The notes under the pieces: generated by a model
Databases searched by the model: none
Told to the model about the DNA's origin: nothing
The model's input: only the letters and a program-made list of their open reading frames with translations
From: a phage
Length of the DNA stretch: 50,192 bases
Reading direction: 5' to 3' (one strand)
Sequence record: PZ445416.1
Shown here: positions 9,145 through 34,154 of the stretch, in pieces
Layout: every line of letters begins with the position of its first letter
Position numbering within the stretch: position 1 is the stretch's first letter
Position numbers and translations under genes: made by a program

Positions 9145-9813
9145 ATGCACTTACCAAATGGCGCGCAAATTTTCGTGGAAACCTCTCGCGGAGAAGAGAT
9201 CGAGGCGACCGCTGTCACTAACGCAAAAAATCCTGTTGCTACAGTTACATCTAAAGGCGACTTAGTAAAAGGCGATTACGTTATTGTAACTCAGTCAACT
9301 TGGGCTAAGATGGCTAGTCGAGTGCTAATTGTTGCTGAGGCTCAGGAAACAAGCATCACTCTTGCTGGAATTGACACCTCTGATACTCTTGTTTTTCCGG
9401 CTGGCGGTACGATGAGCTTTGCAAAAATTACTGGCTGGACTGAGATTCCTTGCGTACAGGAGATTGGTCAGGACGGCGGCGAGCAGCAGTATTACACTTA
9501 TCAGTGTTTGTCCGACGATAAAGAGCAGCAGATCCCAACGTTTAAATCTGCGGTATCGCTAACGTACACTTTCGCGCACGAATTTGATAACCCGATCTAC
9601 CCGATTCTGCGCAAGCTGGATTCGTCTGGCCAGGTAACAGCGGTTCGAATGTACGTGCCGAAAGCGAGCGAAATGCGTATGTGGGCTGGCATCTTGTCGT
9701 TTAACGATATCCCATCCACGCAGGTTAACGAAATGGAAACGGTGGAACTCGCCGTATCCCTGAAAGGTGACTTTACTTTCATTTCCTCCACTCTGGCATC
9801 GCCTGGTGCTTAA
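9145..9813 (+). CDS. major tail protein
   Basis: 222 aa, RBS AAGGAGA, followed by a terminator and then the chaperone/tape-measure block. Confidence 0.6.
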   Translation: MHLPNGAQIFVETSRGEEIEATAVTNAKNPVATVTSKGDLVKGDYVIVTQSTWAKMASRVLIVAEAQETSITLAGIDTSDTLVFPAGGTMSFAKITGWTEIPCVQEIGQDGGEQQYYTYQCLSDDKEQQIPTFKSAVSLTYTFAHEFDNPIYPILRKLDSSGQVTAVRMYVPKASEMRMWAGILSFNDIPSTQVNEMETVELAVSLKGDFTFISSTLASPGA

Positions 9814-9825
9814 ATACCATCCATA

Positions 9826-9850
9826 GGGGGCTTGCGCCCCCTTATTCATT
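9826..9850 (+). terminator. terminator-like hairpin after major tail gene
   Basis: GGGGGCTTGCGCCCCC hairpin followed by a weak T-rich run (TTATTCATTTC). Confidence 0.5.
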
Positions 9851-9904: not shown

Positions 9905-9926
9905 TCAACCAATCAGGAGAAACATC

Positions 9927-10244
9927 ATGGCTAAATTCAATTTCGTGTTGGGCCAGCTTCCAGACTTCAAACTTCCGGTGACGTTCACCATGCCAAACGG
10001 CGAGGATGCGACTATTATTTTTACAGTGCGCCACCTTTCCAGTAAAGAAGTGCAAGATATGTATGCGAAGCAGGGCGAAATGAATGATAGCGATTTCATC
10101 ACTAAGATCGCGTCAGGCTGGAATCTGGAAGAAGAATTTAACGAAGAGAATGCGCGCAAACTGGTACAGTATTATCCTTCCGCAGCATACAATCTGACGG
10201 CAACTTACATCAAGGCGCTCGCCGGACACCGAGCAAAAAACTAA
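9927..10244 (+). CDS. tail assembly chaperone (G-like)
   Basis: 105 aa, acidic, immediately upstream of the tape measure; ends in slippery heptamer A_AAA_AAC. Confidence 0.7.
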   Translation: MAKFNFVLGQLPDFKLPVTFTMPNGEDATIIFTVRHLSSKEVQDMYAKQGEMNDSDFITKIASGWNLEEEFNEENARKLVQYYPSAAYNLTATYIKALAGHRAKN

Positions 10245-10561
10245 AAAGGGCGGTTTATCTGTTATATCAGAAACCGCCGACAGAAGAGCAATTGCGATCG
10301 GTTGGCCTCAGTCTTTCTGACTATGAAGACGAGGAACCGGAAACGATAATCGGCGATACTGAAATGGTGAAGGCGTGGAATGTTTTTACGTCAATGCTCA
10401 CTCAGTGGAGAAGTTCAGGCGCTGGAGCTTATGGCCTTGACTATAATGTTTTGCCTATGTTGTTCAAAATCTATAAAATAGAAGATGAAGAACTGGCATT
10501 GCAGGACGTTAGGATCATGGAAGCGAAAGCGCTTGAAATGATTGCTAAGCAAAACAACTAA
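9927..10561 (+). CDS. tail assembly chaperone, -1 frameshift fusion product (G-T-like)
   Basis: The -1 frame is open from the slippery site (10235-10241) through 10561; an 8-bp stem GGCGGTTT/AAACCGCC begins 7 nt downstream. Confidence 0.55.
10235..10278 (+). other. programmed -1 ribosomal frameshift site (slippery heptamer plus stem-loop)
   Basis: A_AAA_AAC at 10235-10241 in the zero frame; stem 10249-10256 pairs with 10271-10278 around a 14-nt loop. Confidence 0.6.
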
Positions 10562-10600
10562 GCCGCCGTTTGGCGGTTTTTTCGTATATAGGGGGGTTAT

Positions 10601-13474
10601 ATGGTTGATAAGGTAGCAGGTCTGTCGCTTGACGTTGATGTGTCAACAGTGCAGCGCGCCGTCAAGTCACTGAAAGAGTTTTCAAAGGCCAACGACCAGG
10701 CCGCTGATTCTATGGGTTCTTTAATCAATGAGTCAGAGGTTGCAAAACAGAAGGCCAAAGAACACGCTGAACAACTCAAGCGCCAGAGAAAAGAGTATGA
10801 GGCCGTGGAGAAGGCAATCGATCCTACAGTATCAAAAATGGAAAGGTTGAAGATTGCGTCTCAGCAGCTTGATAAACTCTGGCAGCAGGGAGTCGTTCCG
10901 GATGAGACATTTTTCCGTTTGGGTGAAATGCTGGATCTGCAAAACGCAAAACTTGCTCGCAGCCGGGCTATGCTTACGGAAGAAGGTCAGGCGGCATTGC
11001 AGGAAGCGAAAGCAAAAGAGCAGGCGGCAGCACGAAGCAAGGCGTTCATGGATGCCCTGAATGGTCAAGTTAATGCGATCGGCAAGACTCATGCTGAATT
11101 GATGGAACTGAAAGCGGCTGAGCTTGGTTTATCGAAAGAAGCAGCACCACTAATCGCAAAACTTAAAGATCAAGGCCGGGCTATGAATGCAGCAGGTATT
11201 AGCGCCGGGGAATACAGGCAAGCAATGCGAATGCTTCCTGCACAGATTACCGACGTTGTTACATCTCTTGCGTCAGGTATGCCAGTTTGGATGGTTGCCA
11301 TCCAGCAAGGCGGTCAAATCAAGGACTCGTTCGGCGGGATCGGGAATACGTTTAAGGTATTGCTCAGCTATATTAATCCGGTCACAGTTGGCGTTGGTGT
11401 TCTTGTCGGTTCTTTAGGTCTTCTTGCGAAAGCTGGTTATGACTCTTACAAGTCAATAACCGATATGCAGAATGCGCTTATTGAGACTGGCGGTTATGCA
11501 GGTGTTACGGCTGAAGATCTTGATTCAGTGTCTAAAAAGATCGCGCAGACAAGTAACTCAACCATTGGGAGTATTCGCGAGATTGTAACGGAGTTGGCAA
11601 GTTCTGGTAAGTACACCCGAGAGCAGATCCAGAACATCACTAAGGCTACCGCAGAGTGGTCAGCGTCAACAGGAAAATCAGCAAGTCAAATTATTGCTGA
11701 GTTCGACAAAATCGCAAGTGATCCGGTAAAAGGTCTGAAGAAGTTAAACGAGCAATATAATTTCCTTGAAAAAGGGCAGCTTACCTATATCGATACATTA
11801 AGCCGGACGAAAGGAGAAACTGAGGCTGTATCAGAGGCTACCAAACTATTCGCAGACGTAATGGAAAAGCGAATGAAGTCGATCGCGGATAACGCTACTC
11901 CTCTGGAAAAGATGTGGAGCGATATTAAACAATGGGCTTCGGACGCGTGGGGATGGGTTGGTGATCATACGCTTGGTGCGCTAAACCTGATTATCGACGT
12001 TGTTCAGGGTACAGTGATTCAGGTTAAAATGATTCTTGCGAAGGGTGATGAGTACATCTCAAATTTTATCGCCTCAGCCATAAAGGCAACTCAGTCACTG
12101 CCTGGAATGAGTGATTTCGGCGCTGATGTGCTGAAGGAGCAGGAGAACATTGTAAAAAGTTCTCGCGACAACTACGATCAGTTAGCTTCAGAGCTTGACG
12201 CTATTAACGCTCGCGTAGAAAAAGGCGAGATGGGATACGTTGAAGCGATGAAGCAGCGTCGCACTCTTGAAAAGCAGTACAGCGAGGAAACTAAGGAAGC
12301 AATAAGGAAAGAAGCAGAAGAGATCGAGAAGCGAAACCGAGAACGAAATAAGCAGTCGAAAATTGTGCGCTCACCGACAGAGCAATTCGACAAGGAGTTA
12401 ATTTCACTCAAGGCTCAACTTAAGGTATTGCAGGAGCACAAGGAGATCGGTCAAAAACTTTCCGCGCAGAGAAAAGCGCTGTTTACGACCGAGGCGACGA
12501 TTGCTGTTCTTCGTGAAGCCAGTTCCAAGCGTCAGTTGTCTGCGGAAGAAAAAGCATTGTTGGCAAGTCAGGAGAAGGTTGTAGAACTTGCTAAACAGAA
12601 GGCTGAGATTGGCGATCAGATTGTCAAGCAACAGCAGTTGAACGCACTTACCGACAAATCACTGAAGTTTGTCAATGAGATGACGGCGGCGACGGAACAG
12701 CTTAACGCTTCACGAGGTCTTAGTACTCGCGACATGGAACGACAAGCTGAACTAGCTAAAATCACCACTGATTACATCAACTCCGGCGGCGGTGAAGGAG
12801 ACGAAAAACTCCAGAACATGATTAAGGCGCAAAATGATTACTACGCTGCGGAAGATGCCAAGCGAGCTGACTGGTTGGCAGGTGCTGAAAGTGCTTTTGC
12901 TGATTACGGTGATGCAGCAATGGATATGTACGGCAATGTTAACGAGATCGCGTCAAGTGCCCTTAACGGAATGTCAGATATGATGGTTCAATTTCTGACC
13001 ACAGGAAAAGCGAACTTTGAGGACTTTGCGAAAAATATCATCGGCATGATTATAAAGATGATTGCTCAGATGGTAATCTTCAATACGATCTCAGGCATGA
13101 TGGGCGGTAAGACGTGGAGCTTTGCTGGAGGGGCGTCGTCTGGTGCTTCTGCGGCATCACAGGCAACCCCTACGCCTGCCGTCTCTGGTTTTAGGTCTTT
13201 ATCTTCAGGCGTCGCTGTTACCTCGCTTGCTGCCGCTGCGGGTAGTGTTGCAACATCTGGATTTAACGCATCTAAATCAGCACCGAAGGCAGCAAACCAA
13301 TCAGCAGGCGGGACGGTCGTTGATGTTAGGGGTATGGAGGTTAAGGTTGATAACGGTTCAGATCCGAGAGGAATTTCTCAGGGCGTAGAAATGATGTTCA
13401 AAAAAATGATTCGCGAGTCTTGTTCGCAGGGCGGTGAGGTTTATAATTACATTCAGGAAAAAACAGGAGGCTAA
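10601..13474 (+). CDS. tail tape measure protein
   Basis: 957 aa, long coiled-coil-rich middle, Gly/Ala/Ser-rich hydrophobic C-terminal segment, canonical position after the chaperones. Confidence 0.85.
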
Positions 13475-16096: not shown

Positions 16097-19000
16097 ATGA
16101 TTCAAAAAGTGATAAGTGGATCTAAGGGTGGGTCACAGAAGCCTCATAACCCAGTTGAGATGGAAGACAATCTAATCTCAATCAACAAAATCAAAATCCT
16201 GTTAGCTGTATCTGATGGTGAAATTGACGAAACATTCAGCCTAAAGCAGTTGATGTTTAACTCAGTTCCGGTGCAAAACGAGGATGGATCGTTCAACTTC
16301 GAAGGGGTAAAGGCTGAGTTCAGGCCGGGAACTCAGACGCAGGAATACATAAAGGGCATGGAAGATAGCTCCAGCGAGGTAACTGTAAATCGTGAGGTTA
16401 CTACCGATAACCCATACACGATCTCAGTAACCAACAAAACGCTGTCGGCAATCCGTATCAAAATGTTCATGCCTCGCGGCGTACGAATTGAAAGTAACGG
16501 CGATAAAAACGGCGTTCGCGTTGAGTACGAGGTGCAGCAAGCGGTTGATGGCGGTTCGTTTGAGACTGTTCTTACTGATGTAATCGAAGGCAAAACAATG
16601 TCGGGTTATGATCGAAGCCGTCGCGTAAACCTGCCTAACTTCAACAATCAGGTAATATTCAGAGTTGTTCGAAAGACTCCTGATTCCAATGACTCGAATG
16701 TCGTTGATGCAATCCAGGTAAGAAGCTATGCAGAGGTCATTGATGCCAAATTCCGATATCCTCTGACTGGTCTTCTTTTCGTAGAGTTCGATTCGAAGAT
16801 GTTCCCCAACCAGTTACCTACGATCTCAATTCGTAAGCGCTGGAAGATTGTAAACGTTCCGTCTAACTACGACCCAGAATCGCGAACATACAACGGCAAT
16901 TGGGATGGCACTTTCAAAAAAGCATGGACGAATAATCCGGCGTGGGTTCTTTATGACCTGATGATTAATCAGCGTTACGGCCTGGATCAGAAAGAGCTTG
17001 GTATCGCTGTCGATAAATGGGCGCTCTACGAGGCTGCGCAATATTGCGATCAGATGGTTCCTGATGGGAAGGGCGGGACGGAACCTCGATACCTTTGCGA
17101 CGTGATAATCCAGTCCCAGACTGACGCTTACAAGGTTATTCGAGATATTTGCTCAATCTTTCGAGGTATGAGCTTTTGGAATGGCGAAAGCATTTCGGTA
17201 ATCATCGACAGGCCGCGTGAACCTGCGTACATCTTCACTAACGACAACGTTGTTAATGGTGACTTCTCCTACACGTTCGCAAGCGAAAAGAGCATGTACA
17301 CGACGTGTAATGTGATGTTTGATGATGAACAAAACATGTATCAACAGGACGTTGAGCCAGTATTCGATCGTGAGGCTACTCTACGCTTCGGGAACAACGT
17401 AACGAGCATTACAGCGATCGGGTGCACTCGACGCAGCGAGGCTAACCGACGTGGGCGATGGATTCTGAAAACGAACCTACGCAGCACTACGGTAAACTTC
17501 GCTACTGGACTGGAAGGGATGATTCCGACAATCGGAGACGTGGTGGCAATATCTGATAACTTCTGGTCAAGTAACTTGACGATGAACCTGTCAGGGCGAT
17601 TGCTCGAAGTGTCAGGTAGTCAGATTTTCCTGCCGTTCCGCGTTGATGCGCGCGCAGGTGACTTTATTATCGTAAATAAGCCAGATGGCAAGCCCGTGAA
17701 GCGCACAATCTCAAGTGTTAGTGCGGATGGTAAGACCATAGAGATTAACATCGGCTTTGGCTTTCCTGTGAAGCCTAACACGGTATTCGCAATCGACCGT
17801 ACTGACATTGCGTTGCAGCAGTACGTCGTGACAAAAATCGACAAGGGCGATGATGATGAGGAATTTACCTACAAAATCACGGCGGTGGAGTACGATCCTA
17901 ACAAGTACGATGAAATTGATTACGGGGTTAACATCGACGACCGACCGACGAGCATCGTTGAGCCAGATCAGATCCCTAAGCCGAAAAACGTGAAAGTGTC
18001 CTCAGAGTCGAGAATCGTCCAGGGGATGAGCGTAGAAACGATGATTGTTAGCTGGGATAAAGTGCCGTACGCAGTTTTCTATGACGTACAGTGGCGAAAG
18101 GATAACGGCAACTGGCAAAACGTTCCGCAGACAGCAAACAAAGAGGTTTATGTTGAAGGGATTTACGCTGGCAACTATCAGGTTCGCGTTCGCTCCGTCG
18201 CTGGTTCGGGTACGACTTCAGGCTGGTCAAATATCGTCGCGGCAACATTGACGGGTAAACAGGGTGAGCCTGGCCGACCGATTAACCTTACAGCTACGGA
18301 TGATGTTGTTTTTGGCATCCGTACAAAATGGGGGTTCTCTGATGGTTCTGGAGATACGGCCTATACGGAGTTGCAACAGTCACCGGATGGAACAGTGGAT
18401 AACGCAAGTTTGCTTTCATTGATTCCGTATCCGCAGCATGAGTATTATCACTCACCGATGCCGGGAGGGAATATTGTGTGGTATCGGGTAAGGACAGTTG
18501 ACAGGATCGGTAACGTGTCTCAGTGGACTGATTTTGTCAGGGGCATGGCATCAACAAACGTTGACGATATCATCGGAGAGATTTCTGTCGATATCGAAAA
18601 CTCGCCGGGTTACGAGTGGCTTGTTGATAACGCAACCGACAACGCGTCGCAGAACGCAGCGAACGCAGAGGCAGCAATTGAGAACGCGCTGGCTAATGAC
18701 AAAGACGCGATCTACATGAAGAAGGAGAACGGAAAGCGAAAAGCGGAGTACACCAAATCACTGAAGCTAATTGCTGATGAGACTGAGGCGCGAGTAACGG
18801 CGGTTGAGCAATTGAGGGCGAGCTTTGGCGATCAGATTAGCGCAAGCAATAGTGAATTGCGTGAAGTTATCGCAACTGAGACAGGGGCGCTATCTCGTGA
18901 GATTGACCAACTCAAGGCAGAGATTGGTGATGATATTCAGGCAAGTTTGACCGATATCCGTGAAGCCATCGCGAACGAGACTGAGGCGAGAACGCAAGCT

Positions 19001-19516
19001 GACTTAACGTTAAGCGCGCGACTTGGGAATAACGAGGCAGCACTTTCTCAAAAACTTGACTCGTGGAGTAACGCCGATTCGACTGGTGCAATGTACGGCG
19101 TCAAGCTGGGTCTGAAATACAACGGCCAGGAATACAGCGCAGGAATGGCTATGTCTCTGATTGGTTCCGGGGCTGCGGTTAAAGCGCAAATTCTATTCGA
19201 AGCGTCACGATTTGCAATCATGACTGGAATGAACGGTCAGACTCAGTATCCTTTCGTTGTTGAAGGTAATCAGGTGATTCTTAATAGTGCCATCATTAAG
19301 AACGGATTCATCACGAATGCGATGATTGGTAATGTTATTCAATCGAATAACTATGTCGTTAACAAGGCTGGCTGGAGACTTGACAAGGGAGGTACATTTG
19401 AAAACTACGGAAGTGATGGTGAGGGTGCAATGAAGCAAACTAATACCACAATATCTGTTAGGGATGCGAGTGGTCGCCTGAGGGTTCAGATTGGCAGGTT
19501 GACTGGCTCATGGTAA
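16097..19516 (+). CDS. tail tip / host-specificity protein (lambda J-like)
   Basis: 1139 aa, largest tail-tip ORF, with central fibronectin-III-like repeats and a C-terminal receptor-binding region; followed by terminator. Confidence 0.8.
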   Translation: MIQKVISGSKGGSQKPHNPVEMEDNLISINKIKILLAVSDGEIDETFSLKQLMFNSVPVQNEDGSFNFEGVKAEFRPGTQTQEYIKGMEDSSSEVTVNREVTTDNPYTISVTNKTLSAIRIKMFMPRGVRIESNGDKNGVRVEYEVQQAVDGGSFETVLTDVIEGKTMSGYDRSRRVNLPNFNNQVIFRVVRKTPDSNDSNVVDAIQVRSYAEVIDAKFRYPLTGLLFVEFDSKMFPNQLPTISIRKRWKIVNVPSNYDPESRTYNGNWDGTFKKAWTNNPAWVLYDLMINQRYGLDQKELGIAVDKWALYEAAQYCDQMVPDGKGGTEPRYLCDVIIQSQTDAYKVIRDICSIFRGMSFWNGESISVIIDRPREPAYIFTNDNVVNGDFSYTFASEKSMYTTCNVMFDDEQNMYQQDVEPVFDREATLRFGNNVTSITAIGCTRRSEANRRGRWILKTNLRSTTVNFATGLEGMIPTIGDVVAISDNFWSSNLTMNLSGRLLEVSGSQIFLPFRVDARAGDFIIVNKPDGKPVKRTISSVSADGKTIEINIGFGFPVKPNTVFAIDRTDIALQQYVVTKIDKGDDDEEFTYKITAVEYDPNKYDEIDYGVNIDDRPTSIVEPDQIPKPKNVKVSSESRIVQGMSVETMIVSWDKVPYAVFYDVQWRKDNGNWQNVPQTANKEVYVEGIYAGNYQVRVRSVAGSGTTSGWSNIVAATLTGKQGEPGRPINLTATDDVVFGIRTKWGFSDGSGDTAYTELQQSPDGTVDNASLLSLIPYPQHEYYHSPMPGGNIVWYRVRTVDRIGNVSQWTDFVRGMASTNVDDIIGEISVDIENSPGYEWLVDNATDNASQNAANAEAAIENALANDKDAIYMKKENGKRKAEYTKSLKLIADETEARVTAVEQLRASFGDQISASNSELREVIATETGALSREIDQLKAEIGDDIQASLTDIREAIANETEARTQADLTLSARLGNNEAALSQKLDSWSNADSTGAMYGVKLGLKYNGQEYSAGMAMSLIGSGAAVKAQILFEASRFAIMTGMNGQTQYPFVVEGNQVILNSAIIKNGFITNAMIGNVIQSNNYVVNKAGWRLDKGGTFENYGSDGEGAMKQTNTTISVRDASGRLRVQIGRLTGSW

Positions 19517-21329: not shown

Positions 21330-22394
21330 ATGTTCCAGGTATTCACATCAAGTCAGCTTTCTAATGACGAGTATCATAGCAACGAAGGTTGGGCGGCAGA
21401 GTATGTAAGCGGTTCGAGCCTTGCAGAAATTTATCAGACTTGCCCGGCTAACTGGCGATTCAAGAAGAACGAGACGACTAAAGCGCTGGAGTTTGGTACT
21501 CAGTCGCACACCAACTTTGAGAGCCGAGATCTGTTTACTGCATCGTATGCGCGTTGTCCGGCTCCGGCAGAGTTTAAAGATCTCATTACTTCGCAGGCGG
21601 CGCTGGCAGCAAAATTAAAATCTTTTGGCCTGAAAGGTACATCCGGTAAGCAGTACCCGGACCTCATCAAAATGATGGTTGATTGTGGCGAAGACCTTAA
21701 CGTTCAATACCTGATTGAACTGATCGCAGAGGCTGAGGCTCGCGCTGAAGGAAAGAAACTCGTCGACGCTGATAAATACGACGCCTGCATGAAGATGAGA
21801 GCTATACTTGAACAGAACCCCGATCATGAAGCGTGCATCAACAGCGAAACAGCGCAGCGTGAAATCTCAATCTTCGGTGAAATATCCGGCGTCAAGGTTA
21901 AGGTTCGACTAGATCATCTTGACTATAAAGAGAATGTACCAGGTCGTGTACTGACTGGTTATGATGAGAATGGTGATCCGGTATTTGAAGACGTAATTTT
22001 CCCGGAAGCACTGATTATCACAGATTTCAAAACTACGATGAGCGCCAACCCGTTAGAGTTCCCGAGACTGGCATACAATCACGGTTATTACCTGAAGATG
22101 GCATTGCAGCATGACCTGCTACGTCGCGCAATCCAGGCTGGCGCTTTTGAAGGAAACTTCCCGGAAGATATTCCGATCGTAGTTCGATTGCTTGCGCAGG
22201 AGAAAAAAGAGCCTTATATCGCACTGGCTTACCGTATGACTATGGAGCAAATCAGGATCGGTCGTAACCAGTACATTAGCGTAGTCCACACTTACAAGGC
22301 TTGCTCTGAAATGGATGTTTGGCCTGGGTACGCTGGCGACGCAAGCGAGATCGAACTTGAAACGCCATCATGGGTGCGTTACCAAAATAAGTAA
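21330..22394 (+). CDS. PD-(D/E)xK exonuclease (RecE/YqaJ-like)
   Basis: Motifs VRLDHLD and IITDFKT fit the D...(D/E)xK nuclease signature; followed by Erf and SSB. Confidence 0.6.
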   Translation: MFQVFTSSQLSNDEYHSNEGWAAEYVSGSSLAEIYQTCPANWRFKKNETTKALEFGTQSHTNFESRDLFTASYARCPAPAEFKDLITSQAALAAKLKSFGLKGTSGKQYPDLIKMMVDCGEDLNVQYLIELIAEAEARAEGKKLVDADKYDACMKMRAILEQNPDHEACINSETAQREISIFGEISGVKVKVRLDHLDYKENVPGRVLTGYDENGDPVFEDVIFPEALIITDFKTTMSANPLEFPRLAYNHGYYLKMALQHDLLRRAIQAGAFEGNFPEDIPIVVRLLAQEKKEPYIALAYRMTMEQIRIGRNQYISVVHTYKACSEMDVWPGYAGDASEIELETPSWVRYQNK

Positions 22395-33265: not shown

Positions 33266-33753
33266 TGAGCTTAAAAAATAACGTTATAGGCGCATCGATC
33301 GGGGCTGCTTTGACGTTGACGCCTACCCTACTGGAACGAATCGAAGGGATAGAATACGAGGTGTATTACGATATCGCCGGAGTCCCTACCGTATGCAGCG
33401 GAATAACCGGGCCTGACGTCATACCTGGTAAGAAATACACTAAGCGAGAATGCGATGCATTGCTGATAAAACATATCGGCGTCGCTCAGCGATACGTTGA
33501 CAAAAAGGTGAATGTTGATATTCCGGTAACGATGCGCGCGTCACTGTACAGCTTCACTTTCAACGTTGGTACTGGCGCGTTCGGATCTTCTACAATGCTT
33601 AAGCTAATAAATCAGAGTAAGCACAAGGAAGCGTGCAATCAGTTATGGCGATGGGTATACTACTACAACCCAAAAACAAAAAAGCGAGAAGTGTCTAGAG
33701 GACTCAAGAACCGACGCGCTGAAGAATACGCGTATTGCGTTAAGGAATTATGA
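33265..33753 (+). CDS. endolysin (lysozyme-like muramidase)
   Basis: 162 aa; N-terminal [26 protein letters not shown] resembles the catalytic E...D...T region of GH24 phage lysozymes. Confidence 0.75.
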
Positions 33754-34154
33754 TGAAACTGAAGAAAACGTGCATTGCGATTGCAGTGGCTTTTGGTGTT
33801 ATTTCCCTATCCGGTTGCTCGACGGCATCTGCCCTGAGCGGTTTAATCGGATCTAAACCGGAAGTTACAGCACAAATCGGAGAGGAGAACACAAAGCAAT
33901 TAGCAGGAGTAACCGCAAAATCCGAAGATAAGCGAGATGTTAAAGTTGAGAAGTCCAATGTAGGAAAGATTGACTCTTCCTTGAAGAAGTCAATTGAAGT
34001 GTCAACCATTAAGGCTAACACGGTTAACGCTGAAAGCATCACAGTAACAAAACCGGAAAACTGGTACGATGCTATCGTTGGCTGGATTCTCGTTTTTATC
34101 GGTCTATTGCTGGTTTATTTTTCACTTCGTAAGGACGAAAAAAAGGAGGCGTAA
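33750..34154 (+). CDS. unimolecular spanin (lipoprotein with C-terminal transmembrane anchor)
   Basis: Lipobox LSGC after a signal peptide, plus C-terminal TM helix [13 protein letters not shown]; overlaps endolysin stop. Confidence 0.7.

Follow-up and report, generated by a model that had tools for sequence, protein, structure and literature searches.

A probable programmed -1 frameshift in the tail assembly chaperone gene of a T1-like siphovirus

The tail assembly chaperone gene of the phage studied here very probably yields, besides its standard product G, a longer fusion, GT, by a programmed -1 ribosomal frameshift at the heptamer A_AAA_AAC; we put the probability of this reading at about 0.9. 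The DNA is a stretch of 50,192 nt (sequence record PZ445416.1, hereafter the window) from a T1-like siphovirus (Drexlerviridae, Tunavirus). We regard the frameshift as well supported because the heptamer is conserved among relatives, it lies in a trough of synonymous variation, the peptide encoded in the -1 frame is conserved, and this frame lacks a start codon and a Shine-Dalgarno sequence of its own. In the papers on T1-like phages that we searched, we came across neither protein nor reporter data bearing directly on G/GT, nor data on what marks the G/GT type as a class (both products made at a fixed low ratio and required for tail assembly, and neither present in the virion), and all the support is comparative. 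The frameshift of T1-like tail chaperones is already known and is correctly annotated in T1, the type phage of the family. The locus is correctly annotated with two products that share a start, G and GT (Table 1).

Results

Anatomy of the locus

The heptamer AAAAAAC occupies positions 10235-10241, where the zero frame of the ORF 9927-10244 reads GC A_AAA_AAC TAA, i.e. the canonical X_XXY_YYZ register. A previous reading of the sequence alone had placed the heptamer in this 105-aa chaperone ORF, and both the sequence and the register agree with it. The same reading had the ORF ending two codons past the heptamer, which is incorrect: the zero-frame TAA (10242-10244) follows directly, and AAA and AAC are the final sense codons of G (Lys104 and Asn105). 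Its statement that the -1 frame is open from the heptamer to 10561 holds, since this frame has an upstream stop at 10139-10141 and is open from 10142 to its stop at 10559-10561. When fused in silico, the two parts stay in phase through the junction (...HRAKN-LKRAVYL...) and give a protein of 211 aa.

Table 1. Features of the chaperone locus and its neighbours (positions in the window)
Feature	Position	Strand	Evidence and remarks
Tail tube (major tail) gene, upstream neighbour	9145..9813	+	Pfam Phage_tail_3, E = 2.3e-70; equivalent of T1 gp41
Terminator-like hairpin and T tract, between tail tube gene and G	9825..9842	+	Consensus scan; homologous T1 position annotated as rho-independent terminator
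Shine-Dalgarno AGGAG	9915..9919	+	Sequence; 7 nt 5' of G start; anti-SD duplex -7.4 kcal/mol; common to G and GT
G, 105-aa tail assembly (tape measure) chaperone, standard decoding	9927..10244	+	Pfam Phage_TAC_4, E = 2.6e-37, full length; phrog_569
Slippery heptamer A_AAA_AAC	10235..10241	+	Register; identical in 66/87 related loci; synonymous trough
Zero-frame stop TAA, abutting the heptamer	10242..10244	+	Sequence; conserved with the heptamer in relatives
T segment, -1 frame, 106 codons and stop, C-terminal part of GT only	10241..10561	+	DUF1799, E = 2.9e-12; phrog_17368 positions 109-212
GT fusion, 211 aa (probable)	join(9927..10241,10241..10561)	+	Homologous to joined CDS 18872..19506 of T1 AY216660.1
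Predicted hairpin, candidate stimulator	10249..10278	+	MFE fold; begins 7 nt past the heptamer
Terminator-like hairpin and T tract, between T stop and tape measure gene	10560..10579	+	Consensus scan; annotated terminator in T1 and Skenny
Tape measure protein gene, 957 aa	10601..13474	+	Pfam TMP_2, E = 3.5e-74; Tape_meas_lam_C, E = 8e-26

The identity of the gene as a tail assembly chaperone, which had been proposed from the letters alone, is confirmed by protein families, by the synteny with the tube and tape measure genes, and by PHROG 17368. The G ORF matches Phage_TAC_4 (PF08748) with 128.2 bits, for a curated gathering cutoff of 21.1, and the -1 extension matches DUF1799 (PF08809) from position 10310 on with 47.1 bits, for a cutoff of 26. 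In the 213-position profile of PHROG 17368 the G part covers positions 1-107 and the T part positions 109-212. Since a single profile spans both halves, such fused proteins are already present in phage protein collections. The order of the genes, i.e. the tube gene, G, the T frame and the tape measure gene, is the G/GT-type arrangement, with two consecutive ORFs between the tube and the tape measure, and genes similar to lambda M, L, K and I come next. The tape measure protein is presumably the client of the chaperone. A search of the sequences in the PDB with the GT profile gave no meaningful match (E of at least 0.26), and none of the solved structures is thus related in sequence. Querying a protein database with the 211-aa fusion retrieved only two T-like fragments and no full-length fusion, a result that is limited by the word index and thus uninformative.

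Chance expectation

The heptamer alone is unremarkable, as the window contains 20 copies for 15.25 expected. The hairpin that follows it is, by itself, mildly unusual: 4.2% of synonymous recodings (p = 0.042) and 4.9% of the 59-nt windows of the genome fold as well. A scan of the genome for X_XXY_YYZ heptamers in the frame of mechanically listed ORFs (60 aa or longer) gave 73. Only two of them are no more than 10 codons away from the stop and also have a -1 frame that runs on for at least 50 codons past it, and one of the two is the site at 10235. It is the conjunction of features, not the heptamer or the hairpin singly, that is non-random, and this arrangement is conserved throughout a phage family. 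The other passing site, TTTCCCG at 21400, lies on the minus strand in an ORF of 85 aa that faces the start of an intact gene on the plus strand, that of exonuclease VIII; we read it as spurious. The flagged site T_TTA_AAG at 21573, with a -1 extension of 271 codons, belongs to a spurious ORF within the same intact gene.

Conservation of the slippery site among relatives

The 635-nt interval shows 98-99% identity to several coliphages and 97.8% to T1. We assembled 87 Drexlerviridae loci: 80 from IMG/VR, six annotated records and the window. The heptamer followed immediately by a stop is found in 66 of these 87 loci (TAA in 64, TGA in 2), down to about 50% protein identity. Synonymous changes were assessed in a codon alignment of the 211-codon gene that was reduced to 31 lineages. 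The synonymous-difference fraction is 0.00 (GYA), 0.06 (AAA), 0.01 (AAC) and 0.13 (CTA) at codons 103-106, against 0.52 gene-wide, and nowhere else in the gene does synonymous variation drop so low. The codon AAC is almost never swapped for AAT (the fraction of 0.01), so that the C at position 7 of the heptamer is near-invariant. Coding does not require this C, because AAT keeps Asn and AAT TAA gives Leu (TTA) in the -1 frame. Hence, the near-absence of AAC to AAT changes indicates that the heptamer itself is under selection. Protein conservation in the -1 frame sets in with the first codon past the slip: the residues of LKRAVYL are 77-100% conserved across the 31 lineages with an ordinary synonymous turnover, a combination that is the signature of translation in the -1 frame. 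The earlier suggestion of a conserved G/GT-type -1 frameshift is supported by the 66 loci, by the synonymous trough, by the conservation of the -1 peptide, by the lack of a conserved start or Shine-Dalgarno for T (see below) and by the joined CDS annotated in T1 and in the Klebsiella phage Skenny.

Some lineages lack the heptamer. The junction reads GCA AAA GTY (or GCC) TAA in 11 Webervirus-type loci and GCA AAG GTC TAA in five others. As these lineages keep A_AAA or A_AAG, the element common to all lineages is a slippery Lys tetramer at Lys104. Both A_AAA and A_AAG are among the shift-prone motifs of E. coli (PMC4066793), where tetramers rank as A_AAG > U_UUY > C_CCY > A_AAA (Sharma et al., PMC4066793).

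Four loci (L007, L040, L064 and L073) have A5 in place of A6 and would require a +1 shift, an observation that we counted against the mechanism. We considered a +1 version of the site for them and rejected it: three of the four have other frame breaks inside conserved coding sequence. Because of these further frame errors, a sequencing error is the simpler reading of the A5 loci.

Candidate stimulators

The sequence-only reading had also described an 8-bp stem 7 nt downstream of the heptamer. The stem is there: GGCGGTTT (10249-10256) has its exact reverse complement in AAACCGCC (10271-10278), and the spacer is of 7 nt (10242-10248). The MFE fold is larger: 7 bp (10249-10255 with 10272-10278) are followed, past a 2-nt bulge, by 4 more (10258-10261 with 10268-10271), which close a loop of 6 nt. 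This fold has an energy of -17 kcal/mol, compared with -8.65 +/- 2.35 in dinucleotide shuffles (z = -3.55). An 11-bp bulged hairpin with a 7-nt spacer fits the canonical layout of -1 frameshift sites, i.e. heptamer, spacer of 5-9 nt and structure. All the T1 core lineages have such a hairpin (-15 to -22 kcal/mol, spacer of 6-7 nt), and in Webervirus a different, longer-range stem at a similar distance replaces it.

The comparative data on this hairpin are less clear-cut. It is missing from loci L057, L061, L065-L072, L074 and L075, which fold at -3 to -9 kcal/mol; the majority of these loci have the heptamer. In the 31 lineages the stem codons show average synonymous variation, with no sign of constraint, 71.8% of the cells are paired against 69.0% in shuffles, and the covariation score is 0.142 against 0.149 when the partners are slid by -1. 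We also rejected the G-C to U-A swap seen in Webervirus as a case of covariation, for it arises from the re-registered, different stem and not from covariation of columns. Since it comes without synonymous constraint or clear covariation and is missing in distant lineages that bear the heptamer, we treat the hairpin as a plausible stimulator of the slip. The previous claim of a stem at the classic stimulatory spacing stands as regards the 7-nt spacer and the stable fold, and the role of stimulator is plausible. That the hairpin is not universal and that the heptamer is weak in E. coli were both counted against the mechanism.

A stop adjoining a slip site can be a source of ribosome pausing, the so-called 'shifty stops', and the abutting TAA may be an alternative or an added source of it here. 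The Leu codon CTA, which overlaps this TAA in the -1 frame, shows reduced synonymous change (0.13). An upstream Shine-Dalgarno like that of dnaX was not found: the best anti-SD pairing in the 23 nt 5' of the heptamer is -3.2 kcal/mol, i.e. at background level. The corresponding values in relatives are variable (-1.7 to -6.2) and unconserved, and codons 97-102 have high synonymous variation. The Rfam covariance models run over 10150-10650 gave no match near its gathering score (all E of at least 0.93), and none overlapped the site.

Alternative readings of the junction

One might read the locus without any ribosomal shift. If T were a separate gene with an internal start (TTG 10292, ATG 10364 or ATG 10394), G and T would be two proteins, as is implied by gene callers, which list 10292-10561 as an ORF, and by the distinct downstream CDS annotated in T1 RefSeq, ULIM2, SRT8, LHE71 and others. 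Both ATGs are moreover kept as Met codons, in 26 and 28 of the 31 lineages respectively. Yet, the annotated starts vary between records, and the -1 frame has no ATG, GTG or TTG from the upstream stop to 10292. The candidate starts are not preceded by a Shine-Dalgarno either, their anti-SD energies (-2.1 to -3.3 kcal/mol) being at background level (-2.9), whereas 12 gene starts that we tested range from -4.2 to -11.7, with -7.4 for the start of G. In particular, the sequence-only reading had named a start with its own ribosome binding site for 10292-10561 as the observation that would speak against a frameshift; TTG 10292 has an anti-SD duplex of -2.1 kcal/mol and is start-capable in only 6 of the 31 lineages, T1 itself having TTA. 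In addition, 17 to 51 strongly conserved -1 frame codons (LKRAVYL.YQKPPT...VGL..DYE) precede the candidate starts, the DUF1799 match begins 5' of both ATGs, and the conserved -1 frame protein begins exactly at the heptamer. We find a separate T gene extremely improbable. Transcriptional slippage, in which RNA polymerase would add one A in the A6 run and thereby put G and T in one frame (junction ...AKK-LKR...), seems very improbable too. A run of A6 is shorter than those giving appreciable slippage by E. coli RNA polymerase, which we count against this reading. The 16 loci with only A4 (GCA AAA GTY) or A3 (GCA AAG GTC) retain the G/T arrangement with a run too short for it, so they cannot use polymerase slippage, and the near-invariant C at position 7 and the A in the preceding codon fit the rules of tRNA re-pairing instead. 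What speaks for slippage of the polymerase is the homopolymeric run at the junction, the link of AAAAAAA and UUUUUUU motifs with this process (PMC4066793, PMC5009743), and the A5 of four database sequences, which indicates an instability of run length at least in sequencing.

A closer competitor keeps the ribosomal -1 shift and differs in how it takes place. A single Lys tRNA might slip on A_AAA, with or without a pause at the stop, rather than two tRNAs in tandem, and the hairpin would then be a by-product of coding RAVYL...QKPP. Several observations on the hairpin argue for this possibility: the average synonymous variation of the stem codons, a covariation no better than that of the structure slid by -1, the folds of only -3 to -9 kcal/mol in distant lineages bearing the heptamer, and the 4.2% of synonymous recodings that match the real fold. 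Furthermore, A_AAR at Lys104 is the only element common to all lineages, and IS1 uses the identical heptamer without an established stimulator (PMC4066793). However, synonymous constraint is strongest at AAC (0.01), the C included, as one would expect if the Asn tRNA participates. The hairpin is also stable at a canonical spacing of 6-7 nt in all the T1 core lineages, and in Webervirus another stem is found about as far from the junction. We thus hold slippage by the Lys tRNA alone to be unlikely, while taking it seriously.

Discussion

The tandem slip on A_AAA_AAC suggests the following scheme. Ribosomes would begin at ATG 9927 and mostly end at TAA 10242, giving the 105-aa G as the major product. 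A minority would slip back by one nucleotide on the heptamer; we infer both this slip and its efficiency. The Lys and Asn tRNAs, presumably the ones that slip, would re-pair with AAA AAA, and decoding would resume at CTA (10241) in the -1 frame until 10561, producing the 211-aa GT with the junction ...HRAKN-LKRAVYL.... If the two products act like lambda G/GT, the tape measure protein would be coated by the G part, and the T part (DUF1799) would bring in the protein of the tail tube. The intrinsically weak heptamer might set a fixed low ratio of GT to G, with the adjoining stop and the hairpin 7 nt downstream raising the rate of slipping through pausing. In E. coli, A_AAA_AAC is a low-efficiency heptamer whose programmed use is proven in IS1 (Sharma et al., PMC4066793), and the ratio of G to GT in lambda is about 30:1 (PMC5009743). 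Such a weak motif fits a pair of chaperones whose long form must be rare.

The closest known system is T1 itself. In record AY216660.1, the CDS 18872..19189 ('tape measure chaperone') corresponds base for base to 9927..10244 of the window, and the two-piece joined CDS 18872..19506 ('tape measure chaperone, frameshift product') to 9927..10561, with a single annotated ribosome binding site common to both. Over the 635 nt the two phages share the lengths, the heptamer and TAA, the hairpin, the terminators and the neighbouring genes, and only a few point differences separate them, e.g. CGA against CGC in front of GCA and CCG against CCA where the stem ends on its 3' side. Skenny (MK931444), a Webervirus of the same family, has the same gene pair with an annotated joined -1 product. 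Its junction, GCA AAA GTT TAA, has only the A_AAA tetramer left, and the stem predicted there is different and longer-range. The joined frameshift-product CDS of both records have a length of 3n-1 and lie in the homologous place. The genome papers of Skenny, Stevie and Solomon describe tape measure chaperones with a conserved lambda G/GT-like frameshift (PMC6763657, PMC4319613, PMC8407766).

The likeness to lambda G/GT is one of position and logic: the genes lie between those for the tube and the tape measure, and a short and a -1 extended product share one start. The lambda heptamer is G_GGA_AAG. The G and T ORFs of the lambda record have 19 nt in common (10115..10133), which puts the slip several codons ahead of the stop of G, whereas here the heptamer abuts the stop. 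The lambda shift is described as low-level and as involving a Lys tRNA in the summary that PMC5009743 gives of Levin 1993 and of Xu, Hendrix and Duda 2004, 2013 and 2014. The lambda proteins match other Pfam families, Phage_TAC_2 (PF06894) and Phage_tail_T (PF06223), than those of the window, Phage_TAC_4 and DUF1799, and the alignment of G and T with lambda G and T by hhalign gave probabilities of 0.1% and 0.7%. With values below 1% we rejected membership in the lambda G/T sequence families. As there is no detectable similarity with lambda, the roles of G (binding the tape measure protein) and T (recruiting the tube protein) are transferred by position and not by homology.

Two cellular or mobile systems help to situate the signal. 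In IS1 the identical A_AAA_AAC at the insA-insB' junction works on E. coli ribosomes with low efficiency to give a rare fusion protein (PMC4066793). There, the product is a transposase, the context is unrelated and no stimulator is established (PMC4066793), whereas here a stop abuts the heptamer and a hairpin follows. The E. coli gene dnaX shares an A-rich Lys heptamer (A_AAA_AAG) and a downstream stem-loop at about 6-7 nt (PMC4344849, PMC4066793). Yet, it has a G at position 7 where the phage has a C, which makes the phage heptamer much weaker in E. coli, and it has an upstream Shine-Dalgarno where the phage has no SD-like element (-3.2 kcal/mol, background). Finally, the frameshift shortens the product of dnaX and lengthens the one here.

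Since it is already annotated in T1 itself, the site is an ordinary one, and the main value of these results concerns annotation. Many records of T1-like phages give T arbitrary internal starts or leave it out, and such records also label both chaperone ORFs as 'tail length tape measure protein'. The RefSeq copy of T1 (NC_005833) still lists two separate ORFs; in T1 RefSeq, ULIM2, SRT8, LHE71 and Henu5_2 the downstream ORF stands apart, with internal starts that differ between the records, and those of ityhuna and aaroes omit the T part. The earlier advice to list the product as a fusion instead of two genes is right in that GT is a fusion and T is not a separate gene, and incomplete in that G is also a product, and the major one.

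The site illustrates, without adding anything new to it, the established principle that long-tailed phages fix the ratio of their tail chaperones by low-efficiency frameshifting. One might speculate further that Drexlerviridae form a natural series, with a single chaperone frameshift driven by three interchangeable minimal signals (A_AAA_AAC with an abutting stop, A_AAA, and A_AAG) and with downstream structures that differ or are absent depending on the lineage. In T1-type phages the main enhancer could be the adjacent stop (a 'shifty stop') and not the hairpin, and the fusion could then be a mix of AKN-LKR and AKK-LKR. We consider this idea speculative and rather doubtful. If true, the Drexlerviridae series would lend itself well to studying how the tuning of weak motifs leads to a fixed low ratio of GT to G in E. 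coli.

Variation at the G/T junction

Among the compared loci, the slippery motif at the junction between the tail assembly chaperone ORF (G) and its -1 frame extension (T) turns over within Drexlerviridae. Webervirus-type loci read GCA AAA GTY/GCC TAA at this junction and a second, distinct clade reads GCA AAG GTC TAA; the loci with variant motifs are L005 (18431-18442), L076-L086 and L067-L071 (junction just 5' of locus position ~1813-1825). Of the T1-type heptamer, the variant clades have only the A_AAR lysine tetramer, and their downstream structures are different or absent.

Four loci (L007, L040, L064 and L073) have A5, not A6, at the junction (locus position ~1805-1810), which would place T in the +1 frame. 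Homopolymer sequencing errors are the likely cause, because L007, L064 and L073 carry further frame breaks within conserved G or T sequence; L040 is otherwise intact over the stretch examined. In L064 the 3' part of T (~2080-2150) is apparently deleted or frame-broken and reads into an apparent tape measure start (MSEQYAGLTLGVDVS...), which may reflect either faulty assembly or a true deletion.

Other heptamers and database annotation

Another heptamer in register, A_AAA_AAG, lies within an A7 run, two codons 5' of the stop codon that closes an ORF of 134 aa. The encoded protein looks like the T1 unimolecular spanin: it carries LSGC, which resembles a lipobox, and has a hydrophobic segment at its C-terminal end. 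The heptamer is probably incidental: reading on in the -1 frame yields just 18 further codons, with a terminator hairpin immediately 3'. The scan of the window also flagged T_TTA_AAG at 21573, with a 271-codon -1 extension, which was rejected as a frameshift site since its 65-aa ORF (21421-21618) is spurious and lies inside the intact exonuclease VIII gene.

The chaperone ORFs are labelled 'tail length tape measure protein' in the RefSeq record of T1 (L006, NC_005833, 18872-19506), where the T part is begun at an internal ATG (19339..19506). PHROGs 569, 680 and 17368 bear the same 'tail length tape measure protein' label. The mis-annotation has passed into many Drexlerviridae records, and the GenBank record AY216660.1, unlike RefSeq T1, gives the joined CDS correctly.

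Features in the window
Feature	Position	Remark
Terminator-like hairpin and T tract	9825-9842	3' of tail tube gene
Terminator-like hairpin and T tract	10560-10579	between T stop and tape measure start
Exonuclease VIII gene	21330-22394	354 aa, intact, near-identical to T1 gp29
Spanin-like ORF	33750-34154	
A_AAA_AAG	34139-34145	

Transcription of the cassette

In the window, terminator-like hairpins with T tracts flank the G-T cassette on both sides, and rho-independent terminators are annotated at the positions equivalent to both of them in T1 and in the Klebsiella phage Skenny. This arrangement suggests that transcription is graded across tube, chaperones and tape measure.
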